A DNA stretch of 55,998 nt from the NCBI GenBank assembly GCA_004298665.1, contig SCQY01000092.1, forward strand, positions 1-55,998, in the 5' to 3' direction. Every line of letters begins with the position of its first letter. Positions within the stretch are counted from its first letter, which is position 1. The notes beneath the pieces are model-generated. The model had not been told where the DNA came from. It searched no databases and worked only from the letters and a program-made list of their open reading frames with translations. The stretch is from a bacterium. Lineage in GTDB: Bacteria > Vulcanimicrobiota > Vulcanimicrobiia > Vulcanimicrobiales > SCRA01. The translations under genes were made by a program, and so were the position numbers. Positions 30,039 through 53,106 of the stretch are shown here, in pieces.

Positions 30039-30112
30039 CTATATCTGGCTCACCTACACCAGGCGCCTAGTCCCCAGGTGGTGTGTACCGTCGCTTGGCG
30101 GTGGTGCAGATC

Positions 30113-30907
30113 ATGAACGGTGAGAATGGCTCAGGGGGAGACCGCACGATAGTCCGGCCCAACGCCGTTACGGCGCCGGGCTTCACGCCTGAAGCCTTCG
30201 ACGCGTCTCGCAGCGACCTTGAGCTGGCTCCACTTCCCGAGGATAGCTTTGGCGATGCGCTTGATCGCATCGACGCGCTAGTGGAAACAGTCAAGCTCCT
30301 CTTCCGGTGGCTGATACGGCCACTCGCTGTGATTGGGTGCCTATTGGCGCTGGCCGCCGTCGTCGCAGTTCGGCAGTTATCCGTCAAACCAAATGTCGTT
30401 CCATACGTTCAGGTCGTACGCGAGCGTTGTCTCGATATGAAGTGCCGGTCAATCGAGCGCGATGTCAGCGCACTGCAGCCAGTGGCGACTGATGAGCGAT
30501 CGAAGGACATCGTTGCGCGAGCCCTTCTCCCAGTCATCGTCCATCAGATGTTCGCCGTGTCTACCCCGCAACAGGACCAGTACGACTGGAGTCACGACGT
30601 CCTTCCCTTCATTGCCACGAACTCGCCCGCCGCGACCTTCGCGGCAACGTATCTTCAGAAGAACCAGATCGGCGCGTTCGCCGGCCACGGCACGGTGAAC
30701 GTGAGCGTCGATCCGGTCGATCCCCCGAGCGAGCCGAACGTCTACCTCGTCTCGTGGACCATGCAGACCGTGGCTCTTGATGGTACGGCTGCCCAGGCCC
30801 AGCGCAGCTTCGCACGGATCACCTTGAAGTGGGGGACGCCTACGGGAGATAACCGCAACGGGCTCCTTCTGGAGTCGATCGAGCTTGTGACGAAGGGGAG
30901 TAATTAA
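30113..30907 (+). CDS. virB8: VirB8/TrbF-like T4SS inner-membrane protein
   Basis: Single TM followed by VVPYVQV; NTF2-like C-terminus YLVSW...NRNGLLLESI. Confidence 0.75.
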   Translation: MNGENGSGGDRTIVRPNAVTAPGFTPEAFDASRSDLELAPLPEDSFGDALDRIDALVETVKLLFRWLIRPLAVIGCLLALAAVVAVRQLSVKPNVVPYVQVVRERCLDMKCRSIERDVSALQPVATDERSKDIVARALLPVIVHQMFAVSTPQQDQYDWSHDVLPFIATNSPAATFAATYLQKNQIGAFAGHGTVNVSVDPVDPPSEPNVYLVSWTMQTVALDGTAAQAQRSFARITLKWGTPTGDNRNGLLLESIELVTKGSN

Positions 30908-30930
30908 TCCACCATGAAGGGGAGTCTCCC

Positions 30931-31824
30931 GTGGTGATCATACCAACCCCTCAGCCGATCTCTCTCCACTCCCCGGCGCCAATCGCAACCCCAAGACCGG
31001 CGATCGCGACGCCCGCGCCGAGCCATCCGCAAAGTGGCGACGTGTACGTCGATGGGCAGGGCGTGGTTCGTACGATCTACTACGCCGGTGGTTCCATCGT
31101 GGTGAGCTGTGCGCCCAGCTCTACCTGTCGCGTTGAACTTCCGGCGGGCTCGGCCGTGAGCGGGGTTCTCAATCCTACGCCGGCGTGGCACGTGACGCCG
31201 GATAACGACGGGGCCACCCCCATGGTACTCGTCGTCCCCGATCCTGGGGCGCCCGATGCGGGGATCGTCGTGCAATCCAAGGCGCGGAGCTTCGCGATGA
31301 GGCTCCACCTTGATCCCGCTGCCGTGAACGCGACTTACGGGTATCTCTTTCCCGACCATGGTCGGGTGGTGCTCCCCAGCGCGAAGCCCGTGGAAGTAAC
31401 ATCCGAGGATGACCAGGCGAGTGCGGAGCCTTTCCAGGCGCCGATCGCGCCGGCGCCATGTCCCAGCGGCTACGCGATGACCTCGCAAGGCGATCCACCA
31501 TTTTGGCCTCGGCGCGTCTGGATCGCGAATGATGGCGTATCGATCGCGTTCTCGGCCAACGGCGTCATCCCCGTCGCCGCCGTTCCCCTCAGTGGCGCGC
31601 CGCTTCGCTCGCCGGTTGACTTGAGCCGCCTAGCGATGATCTCGCAGGCCGGGGAAATTGACGGCCAAGATCGCGTCGTACACGTGCTCGACTGCTATCC
31701 CACGATTGTGCTGTACCTCGGCTTTGGCAGGGATCGTCGCGCGGTGGTCCTACAGGCTCGTGCGGGAGGTACCCCTCAAGCCACGTCGTCTTCGCCAGCC
31801 AACCGCGACCAGGCCCAGCAATGA
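30931..31824 (+). CDS. virB9: VirB9/TrbG-like T4SS outer-membrane core protein
   Basis: VSCAP...RVELPAG, YAM..GDPPFWPRRVW..DG; lies between VirB8 and VirB10. Confidence 0.7.
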   Translation: MVIIPTPQPISLHSPAPIATPRPAIATPAPSHPQSGDVYVDGQGVVRTIYYAGGSIVVSCAPSSTCRVELPAGSAVSGVLNPTPAWHVTPDNDGATPMVLVVPDPGAPDAGIVVQSKARSFAMRLHLDPAAVNATYGYLFPDHGRVVLPSAKPVEVTSEDDQASAEPFQAPIAPAPCPSGYAMTSQGDPPFWPRRVWIANDGVSIAFSANGVIPVAAVPLSGAPLRSPVDLSRLAMISQAGEIDGQDRVVHVLDCYPTIVLYLGFGRDRRAVVLQARAGGTPQATSSSPANRDQAQQ

Positions 31825-33161
31825 GCGTTTCGACGCAACCAGGAGGGCCTCTTCAGCCGAAACTTTCCTGGCGCGGCCGGCTGGCGCGCACAGCGGTGAC
31901 GGGCGTCGTCGCGCTGGTAGTGCTCGCGCTCTTCTTTCACGTGGATCTCCTCGGCTGGTCCGGGATACACCTGTGGCACGCGGTACACCCAACGCCGACT
32001 GTCAGCCCGATTGCATCACCCTCTGCCAACAGTGATGGTCTCCTGGGTGCGGCGATAGCAGAGATCACCGGGCAACCCGTCCATCCGACTCGGACACCTA
32101 CTCCGCAGGTTGCAGCGCCTGCGGCCGCCGCCCCCGGTGTATCCGGGGCTGCGGGGCGAGCCGGTCTATTGACTCCTGAGCAGCAACGCGAACTGGCCGA
32201 GTCCAATCGAGTCATTAGCCAGGTGAACGGCTCCCCGGTGGACGCGAACCCATTTAGCAACCTCGGGAAAGACATCGCATACCGGGAAACCGCTCCGACT
32301 GCGCAGCCAGCGCCACCGCCGGCCCCTGCGCCGACATCACCTCCGGTGCCCGCGCTCGTGACGCCTTCCCCCCTCACGTCGATGGGCCCGCTCCTTTCGA
32401 ATCCGTCGGCCCCGTCCATGGTCGGGACCGTGCCAGGACAGCAGAGCGGAGCACTTCCCGTGTCGATAGCTCAACTCGATCGGGCTGATGAGGCGTCGTT
32501 TGTCCAAACAACACAAACGGTATCGCCGTATACCAGCGCGGAAGTATCGCCAGCGCGCTCGCCAAACGAGATCTGGCCGAGCGACGGGATCGATTGCACC
32601 CTCAAGAATGCGATCTATTCAGATCTCCCAGGGATAGCGATTGGTCTTATCGCGAAGGACGTGAAGAGCCATCTTCCGCCCCACAACATTCTGATTCCGG
32701 CGACCAGTGAGGTCTGGGGTCCGTATAACGCGCTGGTTGGGCAAGGTCAGGACGCGATGCAGATTCGCTGGGATGTGCTAGCCTACCCCAATGGCGCGAC
32801 TTTGCCGCTTCAGAGTGTGCAAGCTACGGACGCGCGTGGGCGTGCTGGCATTCCCGCGGATGTGAACAACCACGTCGGTCGCGTGTACACCAGCACACTG
32901 ATCGGCACGATCCTTTCGGTGGCTGGCGGCATTGCGGCCGCACGCGCTGAAACGGTCGGTACGCCGTCTGTCGGGCAGCTCTTTGGCGTGAGCGCAAACA
33001 ACGCAGTGCAGCAGCAAGCCTCGCAACGGATGAGCGCCGCACAAAGCATTCCGCCAACGCTTATGGTGCACGGCGGTACACCGTGCCACCTACAGTTTGC
33101 CGCAATTCAGATGCTACCGACCTACAGCGAGGTTGTACGCAGCTACGGGGCTAGCCGATGA
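31821..33161 (+). CDS. virB10: VirB10/TrbI T4SS core protein
   Basis: TM + Pro-rich linker; IYSDLPG, ILIPA...G.Y, RW....PNG, DARGRAGIPADVNNH, IPPTL. Confidence 0.9.
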   Translation: MSVSTQPGGPLQPKLSWRGRLARTAVTGVVALVVLALFFHVDLLGWSGIHLWHAVHPTPTVSPIASPSANSDGLLGAAIAEITGQPVHPTRTPTPQVAAPAAAAPGVSGAAGRAGLLTPEQQRELAESNRVISQVNGSPVDANPFSNLGKDIAYRETAPTAQPAPPPAPAPTSPPVPALVTPSPLTSMGPLLSNPSAPSMVGTVPGQQSGALPVSIAQLDRADEASFVQTTQTVSPYTSAEVSPARSPNEIWPSDGIDCTLKNAIYSDLPGIAIGLIAKDVKSHLPPHNILIPATSEVWGPYNALVGQGQDAMQIRWDVLAYPNGATLPLQSVQATDARGRAGIPADVNNHVGRVYTSTLIGTILSVAGGIAAARAETVGTPSVGQLFGVSANNAVQQQASQRMSAAQSIPPTLMVHGGTPCHLQFAAIQMLPTYSEVVRSYGASR

Positions 33162-33841
33162 TTTCACAGGCGGTGCTCGCCGGCGCGCTGTGGATCTTTG
33201 GGGTGTGCGCGCCCTCTGCGCCGCCGGCGCTGCTCGCCGGCATCGCGATGCAAGAGAGTGGCTTCGATCCGGACGCGATCAACGACGATACCATGCACAA
33301 ATCATACTACCCAGGGTCACCGAATGCCGCTGTGGACTTATCTGTGGCGTTGCAAGCGCACGGAGACCAGATCGACGTCGGCCTGCTCGGGATCGACTAT
33401 ACCGACTGGCAACGGCACGGCGTGCCATTGGTAGCCGCGTTCGATGAATGCACGAACGCACACGTGTCCGCAGAGATATTGATGGGCGACTACGCAAGTG
33501 CGACAGCCACAGGGTATCGCGGCGAGACGGCGTGGGTGGCAGCGCTCTCGCTCTACAACGCCGGTCGCATCACCCCACGCGGTCTCGCCTATGCGCGCTC
33601 GGTGCTTGCAAACACGCAGATGTTGTGGCCGCGGATCCAACTTGCTATGCGCCGGCCCACTGCGTCAGCCGCCTCCGCGCTGATAGCCCAGCAAGCCCCC
33701 GCTCCGACGAGCACTCCAGCCCCCTCCCTCACAGAGGCGGTACGTATTGCTCGCGAGCGCCAAACCCAAGCGTCACGCGCCTATGCAGCGATCGAGCGCG
33801 CCGTCCAAGCGCGTACGAAGGCGCAAAGAGGAGCCCCATGA
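33158..33841 (+). CDS. virB1: VirB1-like lytic transglycosylase
   Basis: CAP, QESGFDPDAIN, IDVGLLGI, AFDECTN, AALSLYNAG. Confidence 0.88.
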   Translation: MISQAVLAGALWIFGVCAPSAPPALLAGIAMQESGFDPDAINDDTMHKSYYPGSPNAAVDLSVALQAHGDQIDVGLLGIDYTDWQRHGVPLVAAFDECTNAHVSAEILMGDYASATATGYRGETAWVAALSLYNAGRITPRGLAYARSVLANTQMLWPRIQLAMRRPTASAASALIAQQAPAPTSTPAPSLTEAVRIARERQTQASRAYAAIERAVQARTKAQRGAP

Positions 33842-35328
33842 CCGTACCCGAGCAAGCACTTCCGGCTGCCTCGGCAGACGTCTCGCTAGCGCCCGAAGCC
33901 ATGCGTCGGGCGCTCGGCCGCATCGGGCTTGGCGCGGCATTACGCGAACGGATCATTCCGATCTCGCTCGCGCGCGGGCGTCTCACGATTGGCGTTGATG
34001 GCGATACCAAAAAAGCCATCGCGTGGGCACGCGTACATGCTGGATTACGCGACATTGTCGCAGTTCCACTGGCTACTGCGCAAGTAAGCGCAACGTTACG
34101 CGAGCTGCGCGCTGCGAACGCTTCGCCGCCGCTTAGCCGTGCCGAGGAGCAGATCGCGCGCGCGGTCACAACCGTAGCGATCGGCGGCGGCAGTGATCTC
34201 TTTGCGCTGCCTGACCAGACCGGTGTTCGACTCATTGCGAAGATCAACGGCGCAGCGCGTGAGATCAGCCGAATGGACAGCGCGACGTATGAGCAGTCCC
34301 TGATCGCAGGGTCCGTATCGGGTCACCTCGGTGGTACGGCGCACCTACGCGAGTCACAGAGTTGCGGCTATCAGATCGACTACGACGCTGTACGCGTTTC
34401 TTGCCGCCTTCGCACGTACCCGCGAACGATCCGGATCGGTACGGAAACGAAAATCGTCCCGGCACTGGACTTCCGTATCCACCCGGACCAGGACGATCTC
34501 CCGCGTCCAGACGAGCTCGGTATCCGTGCCGAGGCGATAGCGGCATTACGCCGGGTACTGGCCGAGGAACGGCTTCCAGTCTTAGTAAGCGGGGAGCCCG
34601 GTGTCGGCAAAACGACAACTCTTTTTTCCATTCTGCGGGAGATTGCTAAGGTCTGGCCGTTCATCTACACGTTCGAGGCACCCATTGAGATGGTCGTCGA
34701 CGAGCTCATCCAGCGCGAAGTTCCGACAATCTCAGATGCCATCCCCGACCGTGAAGCCCTGTTACAGATGAACCCGGATATCGTGTTCATCGGTGAAGCG
34801 CTCGGCCGCGGCTCCTTTGCACCGTTGCTTGATTTTATCGAGACCAATGTGCCAAGCGTGACGACGCTTCACGAGCGCACCGCTCTAGGCGCGCTCTACC
34901 GGGCAGTCCAGCTCGGTGGCGATCGCTACCTCACGAAGGCCAGGCTCATATGGTGCCAAGCGCTCATCGCGCCGGTCTGCCACAACTGCGGTACGCAAGG
35001 CTCACCGAGCGCGGCAGTGGAGTATCGGTTTAAGCTCCACGAGACGCCGCCCCCAACCACGACGTGGCGGCGAACAGTGGGGGCCGACTGCGCCTATTGT
35101 CAGGGGCTCGGGGTGACTGGTCCTCGTCGTCCACTGGTGGAGTTCTTCCACGTCAATGCCGGGGTCCGCGAGGTAGTCCGCGGTGGAGCATGGAACCCGG
35201 GAGCGCTGCGCAAGCTCGTCTACCCCTCCCCAGAGGGGATGACCATTGCCGGATCCGGGGCAGAAGCGCTCCGCGCAGGGGAGATCGACGAAACCGAGTT
35301 CCTTAGGCTCGGAGACGACCTGGTGTAG
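33838..35328 (+). CDS. pilB: PilB/GspE-family assembly ATPase
   Basis: SGEPGVGKTTTL Walker A, EAPIE, NPDIVFIGE Walker B, TTLH, CHNC...CAYC zinc motif. Confidence 0.85.
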   Translation: MTVPEQALPAASADVSLAPEAMRRALGRIGLGAALRERIIPISLARGRLTIGVDGDTKKAIAWARVHAGLRDIVAVPLATAQVSATLRELRAANASPPLSRAEEQIARAVTTVAIGGGSDLFALPDQTGVRLIAKINGAAREISRMDSATYEQSLIAGSVSGHLGGTAHLRESQSCGYQIDYDAVRVSCRLRTYPRTIRIGTETKIVPALDFRIHPDQDDLPRPDELGIRAEAIAALRRVLAEERLPVLVSGEPGVGKTTTLFSILREIAKVWPFIYTFEAPIEMVVDELIQREVPTISDAIPDREALLQMNPDIVFIGEALGRGSFAPLLDFIETNVPSVTTLHERTALGALYRAVQLGGDRYLTKARLIWCQALIAPVCHNCGTQGSPSAAVEYRFKLHETPPPTTTWRRTVGADCAYCQGLGVTGPRRPLVEFFHVNAGVREVVRGGAWNPGALRKLVYPSPEGMTIAGSGAEALRAGEIDETEFLRLGDDLV

Positions 35329-36473
35329 TGCACTCGAAGGAGAAGGAGAGTAGACAAGTGCAGCCGATCGATGGGAAGCTTGCCCCCTTTGACGGGCGCG
35401 GCGAGCGTTTTGCCGGCAAGGCGGGTTTTGGCGCGTACTGTGAACAGCTGCGCGAGGCCGGCGTGTCGGACCTCATGATTCGGCAAACGCCACTGCGGAT
35501 CGCGGTCTGTACCCGCGCCCGGTTCAGGCGCTTTCCTGACGAGCTGGCACCGTACGCGCTCGAGTGGCTGCGTCATTTCGAGGAGCTTTATCTGAAGCCG
35601 GGTGTGCTGCAGGATCGTTGGAATCGTGAAAAGACGCTCGATGTAGCTCACCGCCTCCCAGGCGGAGGATTTGCGCGCCTGCACTTCTGGCGCCAGGGTG
35701 GGTTGAACCTGAGCGCGCGGATTCACCCGGCGCATCCGCCTTTGCTTGACGATGTGCTCCCTATCGAGAGTGAACGCGAGGAACAGATTCGCAGGGATCT
35801 GATTGCTATGCTTACACGCCGCCAAGGGCTCATTGTCATAGGCGGCCAGGTACGATCCGGCAAGACGTGGCTCGAGCACGCGCTGTACGATTACCTGAAT
35901 CGTCACACGGAGGGTGGTCACGCATGGCTGATCGGAGATCCACTCGAGTTTGAGCACGAGGACGAGGGCTGGATTTTCACACCGAACGATGTGAGCGAAC
36001 GCGGGACCACTCAGGATTATGAGATCCGCCGGTCGTTGCGCGTCCCGCGCACGCTTATCGGCGTCGGCGAGATGCGCGGGGACACCGCATCAACCGAAGC
36101 TACGCTTACCGCGGCACTTGCGGGAACGCTGGTCGTCGCTACCGGACACTTCTCCGATGTGCAGGACATCGTTTCGCGCTTCTCGCTTGGGTCGGCGGCA
36201 ATGAGTGAGCAGAGCAAGCGCAGCGTCTTCCTCGAGGCCTTGCAAGGCGTAATCCACTTGGCGCTTGCGCCGGGGATCGACGGCCGCGAGGTACTAGTAG
36301 TCTCCTACACCGATTTTGGCCAGCACGCGAATCTCAAGACGGACCTGGCCGAAGGCAAACGCGTGGGGCCGACAACAATCGACGTCGGCTATCGCCCGCT
36401 TGCGGCGGATGCGGCGCTGCTCGTTTCGAAGATCGGCCGCGACGCGGCTACTGCACTTGGGGCGCGAGTGTAA
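35328..36473 (+). CDS. pilT: PilT/PilU-family ATPase
   Basis: QGLIVIGGQVRSGKT, DPLEFEH, IGVGEMRGD, LVVATGH. Confidence 0.8.
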   Translation: MHSKEKESRQVQPIDGKLAPFDGRGERFAGKAGFGAYCEQLREAGVSDLMIRQTPLRIAVCTRARFRRFPDELAPYALEWLRHFEELYLKPGVLQDRWNREKTLDVAHRLPGGGFARLHFWRQGGLNLSARIHPAHPPLLDDVLPIESEREEQIRRDLIAMLTRRQGLIVIGGQVRSGKTWLEHALYDYLNRHTEGGHAWLIGDPLEFEHEDEGWIFTPNDVSERGTTQDYEIRRSLRVPRTLIGVGEMRGDTASTEATLTAALAGTLVVATGHFSDVQDIVSRFSLGSAAMSEQSKRSVFLEALQGVIHLALAPGIDGREVLVVSYTDFGQHANLKTDLAEGKRVGPTTIDVGYRPLAADAALLVSKIGRDAATALGARV

Positions 36474-37685
36474 ATGCCGATCTATCGCGTTACGTCGGTA
36501 ACCGAGCAGGGCATTCCGCAAACGGGTGAGCGATACGCCAGGGACTTGCGCGAGCTCGCCGATCGTGAGCGCGCCGCGCGCCGCCAGCTTGTCGATTGGG
36601 GCACGGTGCGCACGCGCCGAGTGCACGACGGAGCATACGCGCACGAGAAACAGCTCTTCTTTCACCGCTTTGCGCAGGCGATGCGCCACCGAGGGTACGA
36701 TCGGGCAACAACCGCGCAGTACCTTATGGAGGTATTTCCCGAGCGGGACAAGCGCTCACATCAGCTGATGCGAAGCGTGCTTTCGACACTCGCTGAGACA
36801 GAGCTACCACTAGCAATGTCCCAGCATCCACAGCTCTTCACGATCGAGGAGGTCGAGGCGGTCGCTGCGTCACGGAATGTGCGCGAAACGCTCTCGATGT
36901 TGGCACGCACGGCGTACGACCGCCGCTCGCTCACGCGCGAGCTCGCCGCGATTATCACGGTGCCGGCGATCGTCGGGACGAGTCTCGTGTTCATCGGCGC
37001 CTTCGTGCTCTTCTACCTGGTACCGATGCTGGAAAGCAACGTATTCCCCTACACGCAGAACGTGCCAGCATTCTTTCAGTGGCTGAGCGCGGCGCGTGCT
37101 TGGCTGTTCCGCCCCCTCGATCTAGGCCTTGTGGTGCTCGTGCTTGCCGTCTTGTTTGCGGGGGGCATCACCCTGTACCAGGTACCGGCGGTGCAGGTAT
37201 GGCTCGTGGGACAGCTCTACCGGAACTCGCGTGGATACGGTCGGGTCCTGCATGGGTTCGAGCGCCGCCGGATTTACACGGCGTGGATCCAGACGCTCGA
37301 GTCGGAGGGGATCGACGCACTGATCGGGCGGGGAATGCAACTAGCCAACGAGGCTGGCCGCAGGGCGTTCAAGCGCGCCGCCGCGCGAGCTCCCCAGGGG
37401 ATCAATCCACTCACCCGCCTACGGGCCGCCACCCCGTACCTCCCCGCCCAGGAGGTGGGGTTACTGGTGGAGGGGTTCAGTGAGGGTGGAGTGAAGGCTA
37501 CCCGGGAGGTCCTGGAGGAGTTGGTAGCCGAGCTGAACGAGAGCATCCCCTTCGACATCGCTCAAGCAAAGGATGAGATACGGGTCGCCCTCACCGTTGC
37601 GCTGACCTCCATCATCATCACGGGGTTGGTTCTCTTCTCAGGTGCGGTATTCTACACACTGTTTCATTTACGGGCGAAGGGATAG
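36474..37685 (+). CDS. pilC: PilC/GspF inner-membrane platform protein
   Basis: MPIYR..., AMSQHPQLF, three TM segments with LVPML, position after the ATPases. Confidence 0.8.
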   Translation: MPIYRVTSVTEQGIPQTGERYARDLRELADRERAARRQLVDWGTVRTRRVHDGAYAHEKQLFFHRFAQAMRHRGYDRATTAQYLMEVFPERDKRSHQLMRSVLSTLAETELPLAMSQHPQLFTIEEVEAVAASRNVRETLSMLARTAYDRRSLTRELAAIITVPAIVGTSLVFIGAFVLFYLVPMLESNVFPYTQNVPAFFQWLSAARAWLFRPLDLGLVVLVLAVLFAGGITLYQVPAVQVWLVGQLYRNSRGYGRVLHGFERRRIYTAWIQTLESEGIDALIGRGMQLANEAGRRAFKRAAARAPQGINPLTRLRAATPYLPAQEVGLLVEGFSEGGVKATREVLEELVAELNESIPFDIAQAKDEIRVALTVALTSIIITGLVLFSGAVFYTLFHLRAKG

Positions 37686-37688
37686 GAC

Positions 37689-41221: not shown

Positions 41222-41271
41222 GATCCACCGGTTCGACTCGAGGAGTCCCACCAACCCACAAAGGACGTATA

Positions 41272-42747
41272 GTGCGCCACCAACCCCTCCTGATTACTCT
41301 CGCTCTGGCATCGGGTCTCCTCGCCATGGACGTCCTCCCTGGCTCCGCGCAATCCGTGCTCTCTACGAATGGGATCCCACTCTCAGCCGCCCTTTCGGCG
41401 ACGGCGCGCGCGGCAAACGAGCGGTTGTGGATTCTGCCCGGCACACCCAACCCGCCCCAGGTCGGCTCGGTTGTCGGCACGACCCCGCGTGAGGCGCTCG
41501 CTCGTCTGCTCGATCTCAATGGCCTTGTGGCCCGGGAGCACAACGGCGTGCTCGTGGTCGGAACGCCCCTAGCGATGGATGCCCGATTCGGATCCGGAAC
41601 GGCCCACGCGCGGCTCGTTCCGGTCGTGGGGTTGGACCCGCAGGTGGTCGTGCAGACGCTGGCGCCGCAGCTTCCGGCGGGGACCGTCATCCTACCGGAC
41701 ACGGCGCGCCACGCGCTCTACGTGTCGGGAACCACGATGGCGCTGCGCCAGGTGGAGTCTTTTGTGGCGCCGCTCAACCAAAGGCAACCCGACGTCGTTC
41801 GCTATCCGCTCCACAGCAGTGCCGACCCGGCGCAGGTGACAGCGCTCCTCGAGAAGGTCGCGCCGCCGGCAGCCCCTGAATCGGTGGTAGTTGATCCCGC
41901 GGGCGGGGCGGTGCTGGTAGCTGGGCCGCCGGGATATCAGGGCGAAGTCAGCGCAGCCCTGGCGCAGATCGATCGCGATCCAGCGCAGGTGAAGTACCAT
42001 ATCTCGGTCATCGAGGTTGACCCCGTACAGCTCGCCCATAACGTTGGCATCTCCGTCGGGCAGAGCCAGACCCAATATCAGGCGGTCGGGCAGTCTGCGA
42101 TCGGGCAGTTGTCGTCCCCGGCACAGGGCCAAGCGATCTTTGCGTTCCCGTTGAATCACGGGCTCTCGCTCAACGGCGAACTCGACCTTCTTGAGTCGCA
42201 CGGACAAGCGCGGTTCATCCGCGATCAAGACATCACCGTGGTGAACGGTACGCAAGGGGTGGCCGACTTCACGGAACAGCTTCCGTATCAGGTGACCACG
42301 CAGAACGGCTTTTCGGTCACGACTGGTACACAGTACCAGTCCTTCGGATTCACGATTAAGTTGACGCCGCAGATCGGCGATAGCACGATCGGCACCACGG
42401 CCAACGTGGTGTACTCAACGCTTGCTGGCTTTGGCGTCGGCGGTGCACCGATCACCACGACGCGCGGTATGACCACGCGCGTAACGACGACCGACGGTCA
42501 GACCTTTCTCGTCGGCGGACTGAAAGCGGAAGACTTTACGACGACGGCATCAGGGATCCCAATACTCGACAGGCTGCCACTGCTCGGGGCGTTGTTCCGG
42601 CATGCGCACGACCAAGACAATCAGCAGGAGCTCGTGATGGTAATCAGCGCGCAGCGCATTGGGGCGGTTGACGCGATAGATACCTCGCGCTATCCGCACG
42701 TAGCACCCTACGTGTTGGCGTCTCCGCTTCCAGGAGGCAAGAAATGA
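41272..42747 (+). CDS. pilQ: Secretin (PilQ/GspD family)
   Basis: Signal peptide, N-domains, IDRDPAQV, DGQTFLVGGL, GIPILDRLPLLGALFR, ELVMVIS; start 41272 (RBS) or 41218. Confidence 0.9.
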   Translation: MRHQPLLITLALASGLLAMDVLPGSAQSVLSTNGIPLSAALSATARAANERLWILPGTPNPPQVGSVVGTTPREALARLLDLNGLVAREHNGVLVVGTPLAMDARFGSGTAHARLVPVVGLDPQVVVQTLAPQLPAGTVILPDTARHALYVSGTTMALRQVESFVAPLNQRQPDVVRYPLHSSADPAQVTALLEKVAPPAAPESVVVDPAGGAVLVAGPPGYQGEVSAALAQIDRDPAQVKYHISVIEVDPVQLAHNVGISVGQSQTQYQAVGQSAIGQLSSPAQGQAIFAFPLNHGLSLNGELDLLESHGQARFIRDQDITVVNGTQGVADFTEQLPYQVTTQNGFSVTTGTQYQSFGFTIKLTPQIGDSTIGTTANVVYSTLAGFGVGGAPITTTRGMTTRVTTTDGQTFLVGGLKAEDFTTTASGIPILDRLPLLGALFRHAHDQDNQQELVMVISAQRIGAVDAIDTSRYPHVAPYVLASPLPGGKK

Positions 42748-45700
42748 TCATCTACGAGCTCGGTCGCAAGGTGGCGCCGCTGCTCGGCCCGCAGCTCGAG
42801 CGCCGAGGGCCTTTCGCGCCCGGCGACCGCGTGGCCGTGACTGTACCACTTGTAAACGAGCGCCAAGTTCCGCTCGAGCGCGTGCAAGTGCGATTCTGCG
42901 CCGACCATCCTGAGGTGCGGTTTGATCCGGAATCGGTGGACATTCCACTCGTGGGAGGCGGGGAGCAGCTACGCGTAGAGACATCGCTGCTGGTGCCACA
43001 GCTTTCGAGCGCAATCGAGAGCGTACGTGTGTGGGCTGTTCTTCACAACCAGGTAGTCGGATCGCTCGAGACAGCGCATGCTGAGGTACGGATTGAGTCA
43101 CGCGCGGCGCTGCGTGCCGATTGCGACGAGACGGATCTGATCATCACAAACGTCGGTACGGCGGCTGCGCGCGTCCACATCGACGGTGATCGCACGCTGC
43201 CACCGGACTGGACCACTGAACGGATGAATATCCAGCCAGGGGGGGAGCTACGCTTATCGCTGCCCATCGAACCACTCGGGGTGCTGCGTTGCATCGAGGA
43301 GACTAGCGGGGAGCGGACGGTGGTGATCGACCGGCGTTCCGGTGCGCAGCCGCCTCGCCTATCAACACGCGGTGAGGCTCGCGGACCTCAGAGCGGCGTC
43401 CGTGTCGGGGATCTCCTCCCAATCGCGATCGAGGTACTCAATAGCGGAGGACCGGCGTACGACGCCGAGATTACGCTTAACCTTCCGGGCGGAGTGACCC
43501 TACTCTCCGGCTACACCACACGCGACGACGTGCCGCTGCTGGACGAAGACATCGTGCGCCGGGGTCGACAGGTCGATATCCGTCTTGGCTGCATCCAAGC
43601 GCAGGAGCACACTGTCGTGCGCGGCGCGGCGCGGGTCGAGCAGCTAACGACCGAAGCCGATTCGCTCGCGTTTGCTGGTGAGGTACGAGCAGCCGAAACC
43701 AGCGATCAACTCCGCTTCGGTACGCGCGTTTTGCGTGCCCCGGCGCTTTCTGGGCACGGCACCTACTTTGCCCCTCTTCGAGAGGATGAGCAGGGTCTGA
43801 TCCATACGACCCTGACGATCACGAACGCCCACGGCGAGCCTGTCGATGGCGCACTGGCGCTAACCGCTCACGGCGCGCAGATCGAAACCGTCACGCGCGA
43901 GGGACGTTCGCTCGAGCTCGGCGCTGATGCAGTCGATTACGGAACCCTCGTGGAGATCGGATCGATCGCAGCACGCTCGCGCGTAAGTATGACGATCATC
44001 GCCTCGCGGATCCCACTCGCGAGCGACGTTGGCTTCGAGGCGCGCATGGTCGTTGGTGGACGGACGCTCCCCTTAGCTGAAGTGCACCAAGAGCTCGTCG
44101 CAGAGCCGCGCGTGTCACTGACGCTGCGGCCGCAGCGCGAGGCGCGCGTACGCGTCGGGCAACCTTGCCTCCTCGAAGTATCACTGGCCAATCACGGGTC
44201 AGATCCACTTCGGGGCGCGCGCTTGCGTCCCGTCGTCCCAGAAGGCGTACGCATGCGCCTGCCGGTGAAAGAAGAGGGGGGCTGGTATCCCCTCGCGGGA
44301 GCACTCGCGCCGCTCGGCGGCCGCACGGGGTTTCCACTGCTCGTCGAGTTGAGTGAGCCGCCCTATGGCAACGCAATCGAGGTTGCGATCGAAGTCGACA
44401 GCGACAACGCGCCTTTGGTTCGCAGCGAGGCCGTCGTAATCGCAACGCCGTCGTCACCGACCCTGATTCTCTCCGAGCCCGAGCTACGGGAGGTTGGCAA
44501 GCGTGGCCTAGTGGAGGTCCGGGTACGCGTGGCGAACCGTTCCGACGGCGTAGCTCGCGATGTCTGGCTCGCCGTCAGAGCAGAGGATCGCCCGGTGCCA
44601 TTCACCGCGACGCTCGATGCGCACTCCGTTGACGAGCGCGGCCGAGGCGGCTCAATGCTGTCGGAAGGGATGCCGCTGGGGGATCTGCCCCCGGGAACGC
44701 AACGTGACGTCGCGTGGTATGCGGCGCCAAGCGGGCCTTCGTACTATACTAAAATCACCGTTCGTGGTGAGCCCGGGATTCAGCGCGTCGTAGACGGCGG
44801 CATCGAGCTGGCCGATCAGGCGTGGTTCACAAGCGAGCCGCTTCCCGCGCGGCCGATCGACGAGAACGTACCCATCGCTGGGGTAACGGCTGCCGCACCT
44901 GATCCATTCCAAAAGGCGCTGGATCAAAGCCCGGACCGGGCTCTGGAAACGGCAGACGAACGACGAGCGCTCGGTTCTGGCGAAGAAGCGGGCACTCGAG
45001 CAGAAGCCGATGCCCTTGCGCCTACGCGAGGTATCGAGCCGTCCGCCCCCGCGCTGACAATGGGCTCGCCGAGCTTGTCGACGGAGGAGCCTGCGCAACC
45101 TCTTGCGCGGCCGATCGACGAGGCTCTCACTGTGGCACAGCACTCGTCCAGTCCAGTTGATACCCTCGTGGCATTCTTCGATAAGGTCGGGATGCCGAGT
45201 GGGGAGCCCTCACAGACCGACGAAGCCGCGGGCGAAGTATCTTCAGTCGCGTCTGAGGAGACGACGCATGACACAGATGTAGCAGCAGCTCCGGCAACGC
45301 AAATCGCGGAGTCGGGAGCCGAGGCAACGGCGCATCGCGAGGTGGAAGAATCGGCGCCGCTAGAGGACTCCGACCTGGAGGACGGAGAGAGTCCAGCGAC
45401 TCCACCACCACCAGAGCTCGCGCCGATCGATCCTGTCGTGGAGCGGCCGGACGCCTTCGGCCTGTCCTTCGGATTTTCGATTGTTGAGATGGTGCGTGGC
45501 ACGGTTCCGTCCGATATCTGGAGGACCGCGCTTGCGCAGGCGGTGGTGCTGCGTCTACTCGGACCTCGTGAGCCCGCGGTACTCGCGCGTCGCGACACCG
45601 TAGTTCAGTATGCGCCGCAGCTTCTCAGTGAGGGCATCACCGATGGAGAAGTGCGAGCCTGGTTCGCGCGGATATTGGCTGGGTGGTGTGGGGGAGAGCT

Positions 45701-45911
45701 AGGGCCACGAGCAGACGAAGCCGCCCTAGCGGCCCTACAAGGTTACACCGTCCCGAGTCCCTATGTCGGGGCATTCGACGACTACCTAGCGGAGCTTGAG
45801 GACACCTACCCGCTGCGCACACCAGGAGCCTATCTTGATGCGCTCGAGAGCGCGAGCGTACCCGGAGTCGTCGATGCACTCGCACAGCTCGTAAAGGCGG
45901 TCAGGCCATGA
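42744..45911 (+). CDS. Large protein with repeated Ig-like (DUF11/CARDB-like) modules and an acidic linker
   Basis: Repeated V.vGD..i.i.v.N.G..A....l.lP.G motifs; no signal peptide. Confidence 0.65.
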   Translation: MIIYELGRKVAPLLGPQLERRGPFAPGDRVAVTVPLVNERQVPLERVQVRFCADHPEVRFDPESVDIPLVGGGEQLRVETSLLVPQLSSAIESVRVWAVLHNQVVGSLETAHAEVRIESRAALRADCDETDLIITNVGTAAARVHIDGDRTLPPDWTTERMNIQPGGELRLSLPIEPLGVLRCIEETSGERTVVIDRRSGAQPPRLSTRGEARGPQSGVRVGDLLPIAIEVLNSGGPAYDAEITLNLPGGVTLLSGYTTRDDVPLLDEDIVRRGRQVDIRLGCIQAQEHTVVRGAARVEQLTTEADSLAFAGEVRAAETSDQLRFGTRVLRAPALSGHGTYFAPLREDEQGLIHTTLTITNAHGEPVDGALALTAHGAQIETVTREGRSLELGADAVDYGTLVEIGSIAARSRVSMTIIASRIPLASDVGFEARMVVGGRTLPLAEVHQELVAEPRVSLTLRPQREARVRVGQPCLLEVSLANHGSDPLRGARLRPVVPEGVRMRLPVKEEGGWYPLAGALAPLGGRTGFPLLVELSEPPYGNAIEVAIEVDSDNAPLVRSEAVVIATPSSPTLILSEPELREVGKRGLVEVRVRVANRSDGVARDVWLAVRAEDRPVPFTATLDAHSVDERGRGGSMLSEGMPLGDLPPGTQRDVAWYAAPSGPSYYTKITVRGEPGIQRVVDGGIELADQAWFTSEPLPARPIDENVPIAGVTAAAPDPFQKALDQSPDRALETADERRALGSGEEAGTRAEADALAPTRGIEPSAPALTMGSPSLSTEEPAQPLARPIDEALTVAQHSSSPVDTLVAFFDKVGMPSGEPSQTDEAAGEVSSVASEETTHDTDVAAAPATQIAESGAEATAHREVEESAPLEDSDLEDGESPATPPPPELAPIDPVVERPDAFGLSFGFSIVEMVRGTVPSDIWRTALAQAVVLRLLGPREPAVLARRDTVVQYAPQLLSEGITDGEVRAWFARILAGWCGGELGPRADEAALAALQGYTVPSPYVGAFDDYLAELEDTYPLRTPGAYLDALESASVPGVVDALAQLVKAVRP

Positions 45912-46582
45912 TCGCGCTGGCCATCATGGCTGTGAGTGCAGCGGCTTTTACTGCGGTCCTTAGCCGCCTGCTGCTCGCCGAGCCGCGCGTGACGGAGCTT
46001 GAGATCCCGGACGTGATCTCGCCGCTCGCACGTCGTGTCGCGCTGTCCCCATCGTCGCAGCCGCGGCAGCACGGGGTGCGCCGCAGCGTCGCACTGCGCC
46101 TCCCGCACCTGCATGTTCCTACCCTCCGACTCCCCCGGTTGCCACGGTGGCATGTACCGAAGCAAGCGTTTCGTCTGCATATCACCTGGCGCTGGCCGCA
46201 GGTACGCGTCCCGAAGCTTGCATTCCGCCTACCGGCGCGCGGTCGGGTGATCTCGCCTCCGCAGCCGGCGGCAGTTGTGCCCGCTCCTGAACCCGCTCCG
46301 GCGGCCGCTGCGCCACAGATCCCGGCGTGGCTTGCGGATCTCGACGTACAGGAGGTTCCGCCCGTTGATCGGCGGGTGTGGCTCTGCTGGCTGCACGTAA
46401 GCGCGTATGTCGGCGAACGCCGCGAGGCCTTTCTGACGCTCGTCGAGGAGAGCGACCCCGAACTCATCAGTGTTGCGCGTCTTGCGCGCCAAACGGACAG
46501 ACCGCTCGTCATTTACACCTTGGAGGAGGCGCAACGGTGGAGTCAGCAGATCGGGACGCAGAGCAGCTCCTCTGCCGCATAG
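45908..46582 (+). CDS. Membrane-anchored hypothetical protein with Pro/Arg repeats
   Basis: N-terminal TM; LP.L.VP repeats; ATGA coupling. Confidence 0.55.
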   Translation: MIALAIMAVSAAAFTAVLSRLLLAEPRVTELEIPDVISPLARRVALSPSSQPRQHGVRRSVALRLPHLHVPTLRLPRLPRWHVPKQAFRLHITWRWPQVRVPKLAFRLPARGRVISPPQPAAVVPAPEPAPAAAAPQIPAWLADLDVQEVPPVDRRVWLCWLHVSAYVGERREAFLTLVEESDPELISVARLARQTDRPLVIYTLEEAQRWSQQIGTQSSSSAA

Positions 46583-47097
46583 TGCGGCACCGTGAAACGC
46601 TGCGTCACTCACTGGCGACTCGGGACCTCGCTTATGCGCTCGCGATCGCATGTGGCTGCGACTCAACGCGCGCCCGCGCAATCGCGTGTGCCGCGCTCCT
46701 CCATGATGTCGGCAAAGGGACGCTCCCCGAGTCCTTGCTGGACGCGCCGCGTCGACTGACGCATGACGAGACGCTGCTGCTGCGCACGCATGCCCAGGCG
46801 GGGGCGCGCATTGCGGCGCACGCCGGCATCGACTCGGAGATCTGCCAATGGATCGGGTTGCACCACGAACGCCCGGATGGCTCAGGCTATGAGGGCATCC
46901 GCGGTGACGCCATTCCCACGGAAGCACGAATCGTCATCGTGGCGGATGTCTGGGAAGCCACTGGGGCCCAGCGCCCCTACAGCCCCTATCACACACGGAG
47001 CGAGCGCTGGCGCATTCTCATAGAAACCGGCTGTGCGCGAGAGGTAGCGGCGTTACACACACTGCTTGAGGAGGATGTCCTTGCTCGGGTTGGATGA
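46582..47097 (+). CDS. Stand-alone HD-GYP-domain protein (c-di-GMP phosphodiesterase family)
   Basis: HS, LLHDVGK, HHERPDGSGYEG, ARIVIVAD, RPY; TAGTG coupling. Confidence 0.88.
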   Translation: MRHRETLRHSLATRDLAYALAIACGCDSTRARAIACAALLHDVGKGTLPESLLDAPRRLTHDETLLLRTHAQAGARIAAHAGIDSEICQWIGLHHERPDGSGYEGIRGDAIPTEARIVIVADVWEATGAQRPYSPYHTRSERWRILIETGCAREVAALHTLLEEDVLARVG

Positions 47098-47479
47098 GGC
47101 CCTGGTGGACGGCGAGCGTCTGTCGGTCTACCAGCTTGGCGAGGGCCTCGGGGTCTTGGCATCACCCCCGCTTACGGCGCGCGGCTACCGCTACGGCGAT
47201 TTAGTGCAGACGGCTTACGAGGATGGGCAGCTGGCTGTACGCCGGATCGTGCGGGCAGGCACTGCTCGCAGTTGGCGCTTCTCGCATCGTTTGGATATTC
47301 CAGCGCTCCAAGCTTTGGTGGAGCAATGCAGTTGGATGGGCGCGGTAATGCGCGCGACAGCGCACGAGCTCGTCGTGGCTGTACCGGCGAACGTCTCCGC
47401 TTTCCCCGTCCTCGAGAGGATACGCAATGCCGGGGTGGCTGCGGCTGGGTCGGCGCTCGATATGGAGGTGGTCGCATGA
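47075..47479 (+). CDS. DUF4265-like protein
   Basis: ERLSV...LASPPLTARGYRYGDLV...L....V pattern. Confidence 0.55.
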   Translation: MSLLGLDEALVDGERLSVYQLGEGLGVLASPPLTARGYRYGDLVQTAYEDGQLAVRRIVRAGTARSWRFSHRLDIPALQALVEQCSWMGAVMRATAHELVVAVPANVSAFPVLERIRNAGVAAAGSALDMEVVA

Positions 47480-47895
47480 GCTTTCCCTCAGCACTCCGGA
47501 CGCGCCCCGGGCTCATCGTCTACCGCGGCGGGCTGAGCGAACCGATCGCGCTCTTACCCGTCGCAACCGGGTGGCGCGTTGCCGAGGTGCCACTCGGCAG
47601 CGAAGCTGTCGCCTTCGGCGACTACGCGACAGTCCGCGAGCTATCCGATGGGCGCTTACAGATCATCGGCATCCGGCAAGGTGGGTGGCGCACGCTGCGG
47701 TCACGGACGGTGATCCCACCACGGGAAGAACTCGTCACCGAGCTTGCCGCCCGCGGGTGGCTTGGCCGCTGGAACGAGGACGGTTATCTGGCCGTTGGCG
47801 TACCCATGGAGGTCTGGCCCGAGGCGCGCCGTGTCCTCGACCATTGGGAAGCGAGTGCTCTCGTGGAGCGCTTCGAGCGGGGCATCGCGTCGTGA
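47476..47895 (+). CDS. DUF4265-like protein (paralogue)
   Basis: EPIAL...VAEVPL.SEAVAFGDY...GGWRTLR...YLAVGVP. Confidence 0.55.
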   Translation: MSFPSALRTRPGLIVYRGGLSEPIALLPVATGWRVAEVPLGSEAVAFGDYATVRELSDGRLQIIGIRQGGWRTLRSRTVIPPREELVTELAARGWLGRWNEDGYLAVGVPMEVWPEARRVLDHWEASALVERFERGIAS

Positions 47896-48884
47896 GTCGT
47901 ACCGCATGGCTGCGTCCCATCCTGGATACCCACCCGACGCTGGAGCGGGTGATTGTCAGTGCCGATCCGCTCGTACCGACGCTGTGGATCGCCGATCAGC
48001 ATGGCTGGCAAGTGGTCGCCGAACGCCAGGTCATCGACGCGGTCACGCAGGCGCTAAGCCAGAACCTCTCCGATGACGATCAAGTGGCCTTCACGAGCGC
48101 TGGCGTGGTTACGCACGTCGAGGCGATTGACGGCGTCGGACAGGTCACAATGCGCCATATCCGCGGCCCTGTATCGTCGACGATCGTGACGATCGCGCCG
48201 ATCGCGCTCGAAGGGGATCTCGGCAGGTGGGGTGTCGATCCTGCGCTCGTGCAAGGCCTCTACGCCCGCCAGCGCGGATTGGTTCTCGTCGGCGGCATGA
48301 GCGGGATGGCGTCGCAGCTTTCGCGCGCACTTTTTACCGAGGTCACAGCGCATGCGATCGATGCTCCTGCTGGAGTCATCGGTGCACGCCCCGTTGCGCG
48401 CGCGATCGCCAGAACGCCTTGGCTCTGGATCGCGTGTGACCCGCGCGCCGGCGTGACGCGCATCGAGGACGCGGCCGAGAGCCTAGCTGAACTAGCGCAG
48501 ATCGTCTTACTGGACGTCGGCGGAGGCCCTGGCACCGTGGAGGGAGCGATTCGCCTCGTCGACGGCGGGGCACTCGTGATAGCTCAGGTTCCCGGAGATG
48601 GGGTGCAGGCGATACTCGAGCGCTGGGAAGCCGCAGTCCCCAGCGCCGAGCGCGCAACGTGGACCGCGACAGTCGGCGCGCTCCGTGCGATCATCGCGAC
48701 CGAACAGATCACCGGCCGATTCGGCCCAGAGACAATCGCCGAGTGGCTCCCCATCGACGCGACCGCCCGAACGACCTTAGCCCGAGAGGGCCCGAGCGGC
48801 AGCGCAGCGCTGCTATCCCTTCCCGGTGCGCGTTCACGTGAAGCCGCGATCACGGCGCTTCGCGTCAAAGGGCGCGTGGCGTGA
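47892..48884 (+). CDS. Degenerate PilT-like protein (Walker A lost)
   Basis: RQRGLVLVGGMSGMAS in place of GxxGSGKS/T; LVDGGALVIA, ILER, ALRAIIA resemble the PilT C-domain. Confidence 0.6.
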   Translation: MSRTAWLRPILDTHPTLERVIVSADPLVPTLWIADQHGWQVVAERQVIDAVTQALSQNLSDDDQVAFTSAGVVTHVEAIDGVGQVTMRHIRGPVSSTIVTIAPIALEGDLGRWGVDPALVQGLYARQRGLVLVGGMSGMASQLSRALFTEVTAHAIDAPAGVIGARPVARAIARTPWLWIACDPRAGVTRIEDAAESLAELAQIVLLDVGGGPGTVEGAIRLVDGGALVIAQVPGDGVQAILERWEAAVPSAERATWTATVGALRAIIATEQITGRFGPETIAEWLPIDATARTTLAREGPSGSAALLSLPGARSREAAITALRVKGRVA

Positions 48885-49711
48885 TCGATTGGGAACGGGC
48901 CTACCAGAGGCTGGCCGAGGTCCCATTCCAGCCACGAGCCGTCGCGCACGCGTTCGCACTGGCGACCGGCGCCCGGCGCGTCGTCTACTTCCCACCCGCC
49001 GCGGCGGGCCTCGCTCCAGAGGGCATCGACGCAGTCGGAGCACGGATCCGCCGCTACATTCCATCAGCCTTCGAATTCAGTGAGCGCTGCATCGGGAATG
49101 GTCGTGACGGCCTCTGCCCTGTCGCCGATCGCGACCCGGGGCTCTGGTTCACTGTTCGGCTCGCCAAGCGCGCCGGCGGCGTCGCGGTCCTCCAGGCACC
49201 GCATCCACCCGATGAGGCATTCTCTACGTTCTGCCTCGTGGCGCTCGCTCGGATCATCGCGGACGCCGAGGTGACGGCGGCGCGAGAGCACGCGGCGCGC
49301 GATCCCCTTACCGGGCTACTACGGCGCGAGGCACTCGAAGCGCAGGTGGCACGAATGGAGCGCTACATTGTCATCGCCATCGACTGCAATGGCCTCAAGG
49401 CGATCAACGATACCCAGGGGCATGCCGCCGGCGACCGGTACCTTCAGGCGGCCGCGGCCGCGCTTCAACACGCCGTCCGCACCGGCGACCCCGTCGCAAG
49501 GTTCGGGGGAGATGAGTTTGTCGTCGTGGGTCCATCGCTCGACGTGGTAGGGCGCGTCCGTTCTTGCCTCGCCGCGGCGTCGGTTTCCGCCTCGCTCGGC
49601 GCGGCGGTGGCTCCCGACGACGGCATGGATTTTGCGAGCGTGCTCGCGCGCGCCGACGCGCGGATGTACGAGGAAAAACGCGCCTACCATGAGATGCGTG
49701 GCGCGCGATGA
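48881..49711 (+). CDS. Diguanylate cyclase (GGDEF)
   Basis: DPLTGL, IDCNGLKAINDTQGHAAGD, RTGD I-site, RFGGDEF, ADARMYEEK. Confidence 0.93.
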   Translation: MIDWERAYQRLAEVPFQPRAVAHAFALATGARRVVYFPPAAAGLAPEGIDAVGARIRRYIPSAFEFSERCIGNGRDGLCPVADRDPGLWFTVRLAKRAGGVAVLQAPHPPDEAFSTFCLVALARIIADAEVTAAREHAARDPLTGLLRREALEAQVARMERYIVIAIDCNGLKAINDTQGHAAGDRYLQAAAAALQHAVRTGDPVARFGGDEFVVVGPSLDVVGRVRSCLAAASVSASLGAAVAPDDGMDFASVLARADARMYEEKRAYHEMRGAR

Positions 49712-49724
49712 CGTTGGCGAAACT

Positions 49725-53050: not shown

Positions 53051-53106
53051 CCTGCCATTAGGGTAGCACGAACAGGCGTTCGCGTCACCACTAGGGAGAA
53101 GGGAGT

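Follow-up and report, generated by a model that had tools for sequence, protein, structure and literature searches.

A VirB-type secretion core and a type IV pilus gene set in one gene row of a candidate relaxase-bearing element

Genes of the row from VirB8 to the secretin

The DNA analysed here, which we call the window, is a whole contig of 55998 nucleotides (nt) (SCQY01000092.1, our C52) from a bacterial genome assembly (G000) of 3.16 Mb in 362 contigs that is 90% complete. A comparison of its ribosomal protein L2 with those of solved ribosomes singled out no clear nearest group. From 30083 to 49711 it carries a row of 20 co-oriented open reading frames (ORFs) on the + strand, in which genes for the core of a VirB-type type IV secretion system (T4SS) run directly into a gene set for a type IV pilus (T4P) with a secretin. 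The row reads VirB8-like, VirB9-like, VirB10, VirB1-like lytic transglycosylase (SLT), PilB-like, PilT-like, PilC-like, pilin-like and A24 prepilin peptidase, followed by four ORFs at the positions of PilM, PilN, PilO and PilP, a secretin, a 1055-amino-acid (aa) protein, a 224-aa protein, an HD-GYP-like protein, two further ORFs and a GGDEF protein. The original prediction for this DNA spoke of about 21 co-oriented and mostly overlapping genes; the tight, co-oriented row is real, and the count is 20. A second locus with the same order lies on another contig of the genome (C280) and is drawn on throughout.

The genes are closely packed. Exact 4-nt overlaps (ATGA or GTGA) are found at 7 of the 19 junctions and three further junctions lie at -1 to +3 nt, while the remaining nine comprise one 23-nt gap and eight longer apparent overlaps that are due to longest-ORF start calls. 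Of particular importance is the junction between the SLT and PilB-like genes, which is an ATGA overlap at 33838-33841, just as had been predicted. No frameshifts or stops were seen in the row, and we infer from the sequence that it forms one operon. Promoter and terminator scans of the window returned signals no better than those of shuffled sequence. Because every NCBIfam equivalog score falls far below its cut-off, the proteins of the row must be regarded as very divergent, and several of the assignments given below draw on position as well as on family matches.

The T4SS part begins with a bitopic protein of 264-274 aa (30083..30907, + strand) that we identify with moderate confidence as VirB8-like, based on a sub-threshold Pfam match, structure-model matches and an alignment with its C280 counterpart. 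It scores 13.3 bits against Pfam VirB8 at 30323-30829 (cut-off 23.2; the regular Pfam scan gave no match), and it is 21% identical to the Pfam-positive VirB8 of C280, with which it shares a layout of one transmembrane segment. An AlphaFold2 (AF2) model of low confidence, with a mean predicted local distance difference test (pLDDT) score of 53.6, was compared with the PDB by Foldseek; the top matches were mostly R388 TrwG, A. tumefaciens VirB8, pKM101 TraE and CagV, at E 1e-3 and with template modelling (TM) scores by target of 0.44-0.64. We take this model, and the one made for VirB10 (mean pLDDT 43.2, likewise low), as weak support. The next gene (30931..31824, +) is called VirB9-like from weak CagX and TrbG matches and from its position: CagX stays under its cut-off (31.5 against 34.2 bits), TrbG models match at E 1e-4 to 8e-4, and the gene is flanked by the VirB8-like gene on one side and VirB10 on the other, as on C280 and in ordinary T4SS loci.

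VirB10/TrbI itself (31821..33161, +) matches TrbI at 109.8 bits (cut-off 35; 112.1 bits in a six-frame TrbI search) and NCBIfam T4SS_VirB10 at 89.3 bits, with further NCBIfam matches to TrbI at 64.8 and ComB10 at 41.8 bits. Its N-terminus carries a WRG motif and a transmembrane segment. This cytoplasmic WR(G) motif is common to the C280 protein and to the complete T4SSs of the phylum, and its retention hints that the window VirB10 still meets a T4SS inner-membrane partner. We had also considered the N-terminal tail as a mimic of the PilM-binding peptide of PilN; this idea was dropped, as VirB10 proteins of ordinary T4SSs carry WRG too. In the low-confidence VirB10 model, two long helices at 351-408 form a helix-loop-helix inside the barrel region, the site of the outer-membrane antenna of VirB10. 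The modelled helices weakly favour the view that the secretin is accompanied by a second outer-membrane conduit. The T4SS part closes with the VirB1-like lytic transglycosylase (33158..33841, +), which matches SLT at 29.9 bits and the NCBIfam VirB1 equivalog at 56.5 bits, far below the cut-off of 212.

The pilus part opens with an assembly ATPase of the PilB/GspE/PilF type (496 aa; 33838..35328, +; T2SSE 79.9 bits). Its Walker A sequence is GEPGVGKT, and its tetracysteine motif consists of CxxC pairs at residues 381 and 418 that are invariant across the family, which supports the label "Zn-PilB" given to it originally. Among solved structures it matches T. thermophilus PilF best (95 bits), followed by GspE/EpsE (85) and PilB (66). 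The ATPase that follows (381 aa; 35328..36473, +; T2SSE 39.4 bits) is an atypical PilT-like protein. It scores 65.3 bits against pilT_fam (cut-off 319) and 59 bits against plasmid TraJ, and PilT or PilU proteins make up nine of its top ten PDB matches (35-57 bits), with DotB last at 32.5 bits. The AIRNLIRE- or AVRxLIRE-like stretch that is present in the PilT of related genomes is missing from it. Next comes a PilC/GspF-like platform protein (36474..37685, +), with T2SSF at 21.1 bits (cut-off 25.2) and GspF at E 1e-4, in a position that is colinear with C280 and with the related genomes.

One codon past the PilC stop, with the residues MLTLDL, begins an ORF of 176 aa (37689..38219, +) that we call pilin-like from its position and from Atlas leads; it has no family match, no leader peptide, and D at the E+5 position. 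Its feature look-alikes in the Atlas (0.91-0.94) belong to PilS, Bundlin and N_methyl clusters, and its structure look-alikes are the N-terminal part of PilV and a type II secretion system (T2SS) pseudopilin (TM 0.52-0.57); Atlas look-alikes of either kind are treated as leads only. The A24 prepilin peptidase (38162..38614, +; Peptidase_A24 34.5 bits) is short, at 150 aa, and has both Asp motifs (SDLRTHRVP and GGADI). The four ORFs behind it (269, 215, 203 and 226 aa; 38605..41221, +) returned no Pfam, NCBIfam or PDB match and are placed as PilM, PilN, PilO and PilP by colinearity only. The secretin (41164..42747, +) scores 96.3 bits for Secretin, 40 bits for Secretin_N and 77 bits for the PilQ subfamily, and it is 29% identical to another secretin of the genome, on contig C5.

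Paralogue, relatives and partner genes

The locus on C280 (2202-26118, minus strand; L021, L022) is a full T4SS array that runs straight into a pilus set. The T4SS genes are ordered VirD4, a helix-turn-helix protein, VirB11, a small protein, VirB4, a 236-aa protein, VirB6, VirB8, VirB9, VirB10 and SLT, and these lead into PilB (MshEN + T2SSE, 160 bits), PilT, PilC, a pilin-like protein of 179 aa, small ORFs, a secretin and a 785-aa protein, the last at the position that the 1055-aa protein takes in the window. The shared genes keep the same order at identities of 29% for VirB10, 33% for SLT, 25% for PilB and 22% for the secretin. Because window and C280 are colinear at such low identity (22-33%), we consider the T4SS-pilus fusion to be old and kept twice in this genome. 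Moreover, on C280 the fusion follows a complete VirD4-VirB11-VirB4-VirB6 set, so the fusion as such represents a T4SS plus an appended pilus rather than a pilus in place of T4SS genes. A further contig, C192, on which a tyrosine integrase is encoded, overlaps the left end of C280 by 91 nt.

The window also appears to extend to the left. Its first 120 bases are identical, in reverse orientation, to the end of C266, a contig of 13.5 kb, and from this exact end overlap we infer that the two contigs join into a sequence of 69.5 kb. Between 3060 and 10090, C266 (L040) encodes a NikA-like protein, a relaxase, an S26 (TraF-like) peptidase and a Cys-rich, low-complexity surface protein of 857 aa, for which there was no PDB match. 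The relaxase has 963 aa, with a MOBP-type Relaxase domain (PF03432, 24.7-29.2 bits) and LPD7. In six-frame family searches, which spanned all contigs of the genome, PF03432 matched C227 and C266 only. The original statement that no relaxase is present thus holds for the window itself, but relaxase, NikA-like protein and TraF-like peptidase are all encoded on the overlapping contig. Since the relaxase-carrying contig overlaps the left end of the window, we expect the element in the window to be relaxase-bearing. Near the other end of the window lies a tyrosine integrase gene (52007..53116, - strand; Phage_integrase 35.5 bits); no tRNA gene was found in the window, and the ends of the element were not found. 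Throughout its length the contig looks like accessory, mobile-element DNA.

The prediction that VirB4, VirB6, VirB11 and VirD4 are missing from the window is upheld by the six-frame searches and by a Walker-A scan. VirB4 (PF03135) was matched only on C280 and nowhere in the window; tblastn with the C280 VirB4 found only C350, and AAA_10 had no match in the window. The type IV coupling protein (T4CP)/VirD4 family (PF02534) was matched only on C31 and C280, and VirB6 (PF04610) only on C280, with a weak match on C350. As for VirB11, the sole T2SSE genes in the window are those of the PilB-like and PilT-like proteins. A scan of every ORF of at least 150 aa on C266 and C52 for Walker-A motifs returned the two pilus ATPases, one AAA_5 protein and one chance match. 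Looking upstream of the row (23001-30200) for traces of VirB4, VirB6 or VirD4, we obtained noise only.

The genome holds a third T4SS-like element on C350 (L038, L039) and C31, two contigs joined by a 106-nt end overlap. C350 encodes a 1076-aa VirB4-like protein, a VirB11-like protein, ParA, a helicase and several unnamed ORFs of 600-1250 aa, and C31 a strong T4CP (221 bits). No VirB10 was found on C350 and C31, whose gene content thus complements that of the window.

Outside the genome the fused genes are rare. A word-indexed search with the PilB-like protein returned two close relatives, at 53% and 45% identity, and a full HMMER search of 1.84 billion representative proteins returned four (P0003, P0002, P0020 and P0021; 914-416 bits), after which the fifth match drops to 189 bits. 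The window VirB10 likewise has four external homologues, at 42-57% identity. The longest contigs that carry the four PilB-like relatives (12004, 7444, 16463 and 132556 nt) are those of the four VirB10 homologues, from the same sources, and because sizes and sources are equal, VirB10 and PilB-like would stand on one contig in all four cases. A VirB8-like homologue (P0019, 52% identity) was found on the 7444-nt contig. For the pair with the 12004-nt contig (P0003 and P0013), a member protein, P0168, is recorded on 95102 nt. Elsewhere the searches came back empty or with distant matches. Among 400 genomes of the phylum other than G000, no copy of the window's PilB-like gene was found at E<=1e-22, and pattern scans of genome, metagenome and viral contigs yielded nothing but ATPases of 22-35% identity, none of them next to a T4SS. 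On plasmids (PLSDB), megablast with the whole row had no match; tblastn with the PilB-like protein matched only T2SS and type IVb pilus (T4bP) ATPases at 25-29%, one such locus (H2) being an ordinary plasmid T2SS; and VirB10 found at best matches of <=35% that cover the C-terminal part only.

The two halves of the row can be compared with their unfused counterparts. With the C280 VirB10 we collected 20 T4SS loci of the phylum and fetched 17-20 kb around each. In 19 of these ordinary loci, an array of the order VirD4-VirB11-VirB4-...-VirB9-VirB10 closes with an SLT, so we take the VirB8-VirB9-VirB10-SLT genes of the window for a true 3' end of the local type of T4SS. None of the 20 has PilB, PilT, PilC or a secretin within the fetched sequence.

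For the pilus we examined seven related genomes of the same order as the host. PilB and PilT are adjacent in all seven, and PilC and a secretin complete the cluster in five; of the others, G005 has PilC and no secretin in the fetched region, and the G011 cluster stands on a 4.7-kb contig. VirB10 lies beside none of the seven clusters, a T4CP was absent from four of the five related genomes searched for one, and five clusters (G005, G010, G013, G033, G034) have no SLT. A classical G|FTLxE prepilin follows PilC in the relatives, whose short A24 peptidases have 203-215 aa. Two of the related clusters have a short A24, PilM_2 (42-52 bits) and PilN, and one of these two also has PilO/T2SSM_b. This comparison bears on two names given in the original prediction. 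"PilMNO" finds no sequence-level support in the window proteins themselves, although their positions are colinear with the PilM_2, PilN and PilO/T2SSM_b of the relatives. "T4aP-like" (type IVa pilus-like) is appropriate for the gene order, which is that of the T4aP-like clusters of related genomes, but sits less well with a leaderless pilin that has D, a 150-aa A24 peptidase, a PilT-like protein that lacks the AIRNLIRE-like stretch, and pilin look-alikes of the PilS, Bundlin and PilV type.

In two of the seven clusters, those of G038 (L026; C20, 10218-19864) and G011 (L028; C51), an SLT gene stands directly before PilB, and its product shares 38-45% identity with the SLT of C280. Neither VirB10 nor a T4CP was found in these two genomes, and their clusters may be remains of a T4SS-pilus fusion. 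They had suggested that the SLT is a gene of the pilus module, an idea that we rejected given the VirB10-SLT order of the 19 ordinary T4SS loci.

A proposed fused secretion and pilus operon, and its rivals

We propose, with a probability of roughly 0.55, that the window belongs to an integrative, relaxase-bearing element with a fused operon for a T4SS core and a conjugative pilus, and that the inner-membrane ATPases of this T4SS are encoded elsewhere. In this operon the distal half of a VirB-type gene array would lead into a pilus gene set that is complete, though very divergent. The fused loci form a lineage that is both rare and conserved, of which C280 carries the fuller form. VirB8, VirB9 and VirB10 would build the envelope-spanning core together with the transglycosylase, and the pilus would be the element's own contact or mating pilus, in a role like that of the thin pili for IncI plasmids. 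VirB4, VirB6, VirB11 and VirD4 could be supplied by an unassembled part of the element or by a co-resident one, either that of C280 or that of C350 and C31. Because these genes are missing from the joinable 69.5 kb, the inner-membrane partner is most likely unassembled or borrowed. The GGDEF and HD-GYP-like proteins would tune the activity of the pilus.

Several findings weigh against this proposal. Neither C52 nor C266 was found to carry VirB4, VirB6, VirB11 or a T4CP. The proteins called VirB9-like, PilC-like and PilM to PilP score below the family cut-offs or escape detection; the pilin-like protein has neither a leader peptide nor the expected E+5 residue, and the PilT-like protein departs from the sequence conserved in the PilT of its relatives. 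Outside the genome, the joint presence of VirB10 and PilB-like is read from equal contig sizes and sources, and the VirB8-like search found a relative on just one of the four external contigs. Finally, because the assembly is so fragmented, its contigs possibly derive from more than one cell or from mixed strains.

The lack of VirB4, VirB6, VirB11 and VirD4, and of any remnants of them, in the joined 69.5 kb could be taken to mean that the pilus genes do their work. In a chimeric machine of this kind, the pilus ATPases, platform, pilin and peptidase would stand in for VirB4/VirB11, VirB6/VirB3 and the VirB2 pilus, and would move DNA or protein in concert with the secretin, with the VirB8/9/10 core or with both of these. 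Such a machine would fit the 4-nt overlap that ties SLT to PilB, the co-occurrence (4/4) of two families that are both rare, and the fact that VirB10, VirB8-like and PilB-like proteins are intact elsewhere at similar divergence (42-57%, 52% and 45-53% identity, respectively). However, VirB4 is the only ubiquitous T4SS protein according to PMC4027160, there is neither a coupling protein nor any other DNA pump, and the window VirB10 keeps the WR(G) tail of complete T4SSs. The fusion on C280, moreover, has a full T4SS, so fusion itself implies no replacement, and the left boundary of the element is unassembled. We therefore consider the chimera rather improbable, and to the same degree its extended version, in which a conserved lineage of mobile elements has replaced VirD4 too, keeps only VirB8/9/10 and the transglycosylase of its T4SS, and has a transfer or contact machine with two outer-membrane conduits.

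The same gene losses might instead mark a T4SS in decay: a C280-like ancestor would have lost VirD4 to VirB6, leaving VirB8-10 inert or vanishing, and the pilus alone would work as cargo under c-di-GMP (cyclic di-GMP) control, in adhesion, twitching, biofilm formation or DNA uptake. We regard both the T4SS part as a leftover and the pilus as independent cargo as unlikely, if worth keeping in mind. A reduction series can be drawn from C280 (full) through the window to G038 and G011 (SLT and pilus) and on to G005, G010, G013, G033 and G034 (pilus), and c-di-GMP genes accompany pilus genes elsewhere, as GGDEF genes after the G038 cluster and in a PilT-GGDEF-HD-GYP set on C227. Against decay, the VirB8-like and VirB10 proteins are intact and are conserved elsewhere at 42-57%, about as well as PilB-like; the 4-nt overlaps are kept in a row free of frameshifts and stops; and a relaxosome is encoded next door, on C266. 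A chance or artefactual junction, whether a mis-assembly or a unique and meaningless recombination, is highly improbable. The assembly is of the fragmented metagenome type that could produce one, but the genome has this gene order in two places, at 22-33% identity, VirB10 and PilB-like appear to co-occur externally in four of four cases, and an identical VirB8-like protein is recorded on a 55668-nt contig. The colinear paralogue and the external co-occurrence thus contradict the objection, raised with the original prediction, that the synteny might be a chance junction.

The fused operon that we favour resembles known systems in parts. Like IncI1 and IncI2 plasmids (R64, TP114) and PAPI-1, the element encodes a pilus beside a T4SS on mobile DNA, with a secretin, an assembly ATPase, a platform, a prepilin peptidase and a lytic transglycosylase, and the pilin-like look-alikes include PilS and PilV clusters (Atlas leads). 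The pil operons of IncI plasmids and PAPI-1 stand apart, next to T4SSs of the I-type or G-type, and their pili are to our knowledge type IVb pili that have no PilT-type ATPase. Unlike these, the window has a T4aP-like order with a PilT-like ATPase and genes at the PilMNOP positions, and the partner of its pilus is a VirB-type T4SS in one and the same row, coupled by ATGA. With the VirB/VirD4 T4SSs of the phylum, which are similar to mating-pair formation class T (MPF-T-like), the window shares the VirB8-VirB9-VirB10-SLT order, the WR(G) motif and, on C266, relaxase and NikA. It differs from them in its low identity, in the lack of VirD4, VirB11, VirB2/3, VirB4, VirB5 and VirB6 from window and C266, and in the pilus and secretin genes that follow its SLT. 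The related T4aP clusters, for their part, have the same PilB-PilT-PilC-prepilin-A24-PilM-PilN-PilO-secretin order and gene sizes, a short A24 peptidase and, in one relative, GGDEF genes downstream, whereas their G|FTL(V/I/L)E prepilin, their AVRxLIRE PilT and the absence of adjacent T4SS genes set them apart from the window, whose proteins are 25-33% identical to theirs or give no detectable match. Helicobacter ComB is a DNA-uptake T4SS subset with homologues of VirB8, VirB9 and VirB10; it keeps a VirB4 homologue and is not known to have a type IV pilus or a secretin. The likeness to the window extends to the NCBIfam ComB10 match of its VirB10, which scores below those of VirB10 and TrbI.

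In the literature, plasmid-borne T4P are reported to aid mating-pair stabilisation (PMC9045228), and the one mention in the ICEclc paper is of a distant "PilT analog" that has a signal peptide. A literature search of the full main texts of papers found no VirB-type T4SS fused to a pilus operon that contains PilT and a secretin. The original proposal of an undescribed conjugation apparatus is thus supported in part: the arrangement is new to the literature searched, C280 shows a pilus added to a full T4SS, and plasmid-borne conjugative pili are of an already known kind; what is new is the fusion of a VirB-type core with a T4aP-ordered pilus set.

In known conjugative elements, accessory type IVb pili decide on mating partners. 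The fusion described here is of a different make. A single genome has it in two copies that have diverged deeply, four more would, as we read the contig sizes, stand on environmental contigs, and the protein families involved are almost absent otherwise from 1.8 billion representative proteins. If its pilus serves mating, it would widen the range of contact devices used by mobile elements and tie c-di-GMP to transfer. Were the form that lacks VirB4 complete, it would break the rule that VirB4 belongs to every T4SS and would offer a natural experiment on the exchange of modules between type IV secretion and type IV filament machines.

Distal genes of the row and neighbouring genes

Beyond the secretin, the row continues with the 1055-aa protein (42744..45911, +), which has no family or PDB match and in the Atlas weakly resembles repeat proteins of the DUF11/CARDB kind (0.76-0.78). 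It is followed by the 224-aa ORF (45908..46582, +), which has an N-terminal hydrophobic segment and no family match, and by the HD-GYP-like phosphodiesterase (46378..47097, +; start uncertain), which scores 83 bits for HD_5 and 66 bits for HD. The HD motifs are present in this protein, together with HHERPDGSGYE, in which GYE takes the place of the usual GYP. Two ORFs at 47066..48884 (+) come next, one of 137 aa (DUF4265 at 22.4 bits, below cut-off) and one of 485 aa that has no match and whose Arg-rich N-terminal part is probably non-coding. The row ends with the GGDEF diguanylate cyclase (48881..49711, +; GGDEF 88 bits), in which the motif RTGDPVARFGGDEF begins at residue 200 and includes an RxxD I-site in the arrangement RxxD-x5-GGDEF. 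This pair of c-di-GMP enzymes may regulate the pilus. The C280 PilB carries MshEN, a c-di-GMP-binding domain, and a family scan gave no MshEN match for the PilB-like ATPase of the window.

Similar gene groups occur apart from the row. On C227 (30212-34617), a PilT-like ATPase gene is followed by GGDEF and HD-GYP genes, and in G038 (C20, 1912-6065; L027) a second PilT gene and two GGDEF genes lie directly downstream of the pilus cluster. A PilT and c-di-GMP module thus looks recurrent in the lineage.

Upstream of the row, a 143-aa ORF (29544..29975, +) has no Pfam family and is a possible winged-helix regulator, judged by eye from its C-terminal part. Further to the left, three overlapping or adjoining ORFs were likewise characterised by eye: a Pro-rich ORF with a C-terminus like a CHAP/NlpC hydrolase (27474-28445, +), a 98-aa ORF with three transmembrane segments (27400-27696, +), and a 394-aa ORF (26326-27510) whose motif resembles the CHC2-type zinc finger of primases. 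At 25585-26295 lies the gene for a single-strand annealing protein of the ERF family. The minus strand from 15920 to 23689 encodes an AAA_5 (MoxR-like) ATPase with a VWA protein, a Sno-type helicase of 1158 aa (AAA_34 + Helicase_C_4) and a 379-aa methyltransferase whose gene overlaps that of the helicase; large mobile elements typically carry helicase, methyltransferase and AAA_5-VWA modules of this sort as cargo or for maintenance. At the far left, a ThiF-family E1-like protein (8966-9895; 62.5 bits) is encoded amid small minus-strand ORFs without a name. At the right end of the window, a comparison of 46000-55998 with four same-genus genomes found nothing conserved apart from an SRAP (YedK-like) gene (53354-54034; 224.6 bits), which has a 67% match in one of the four.

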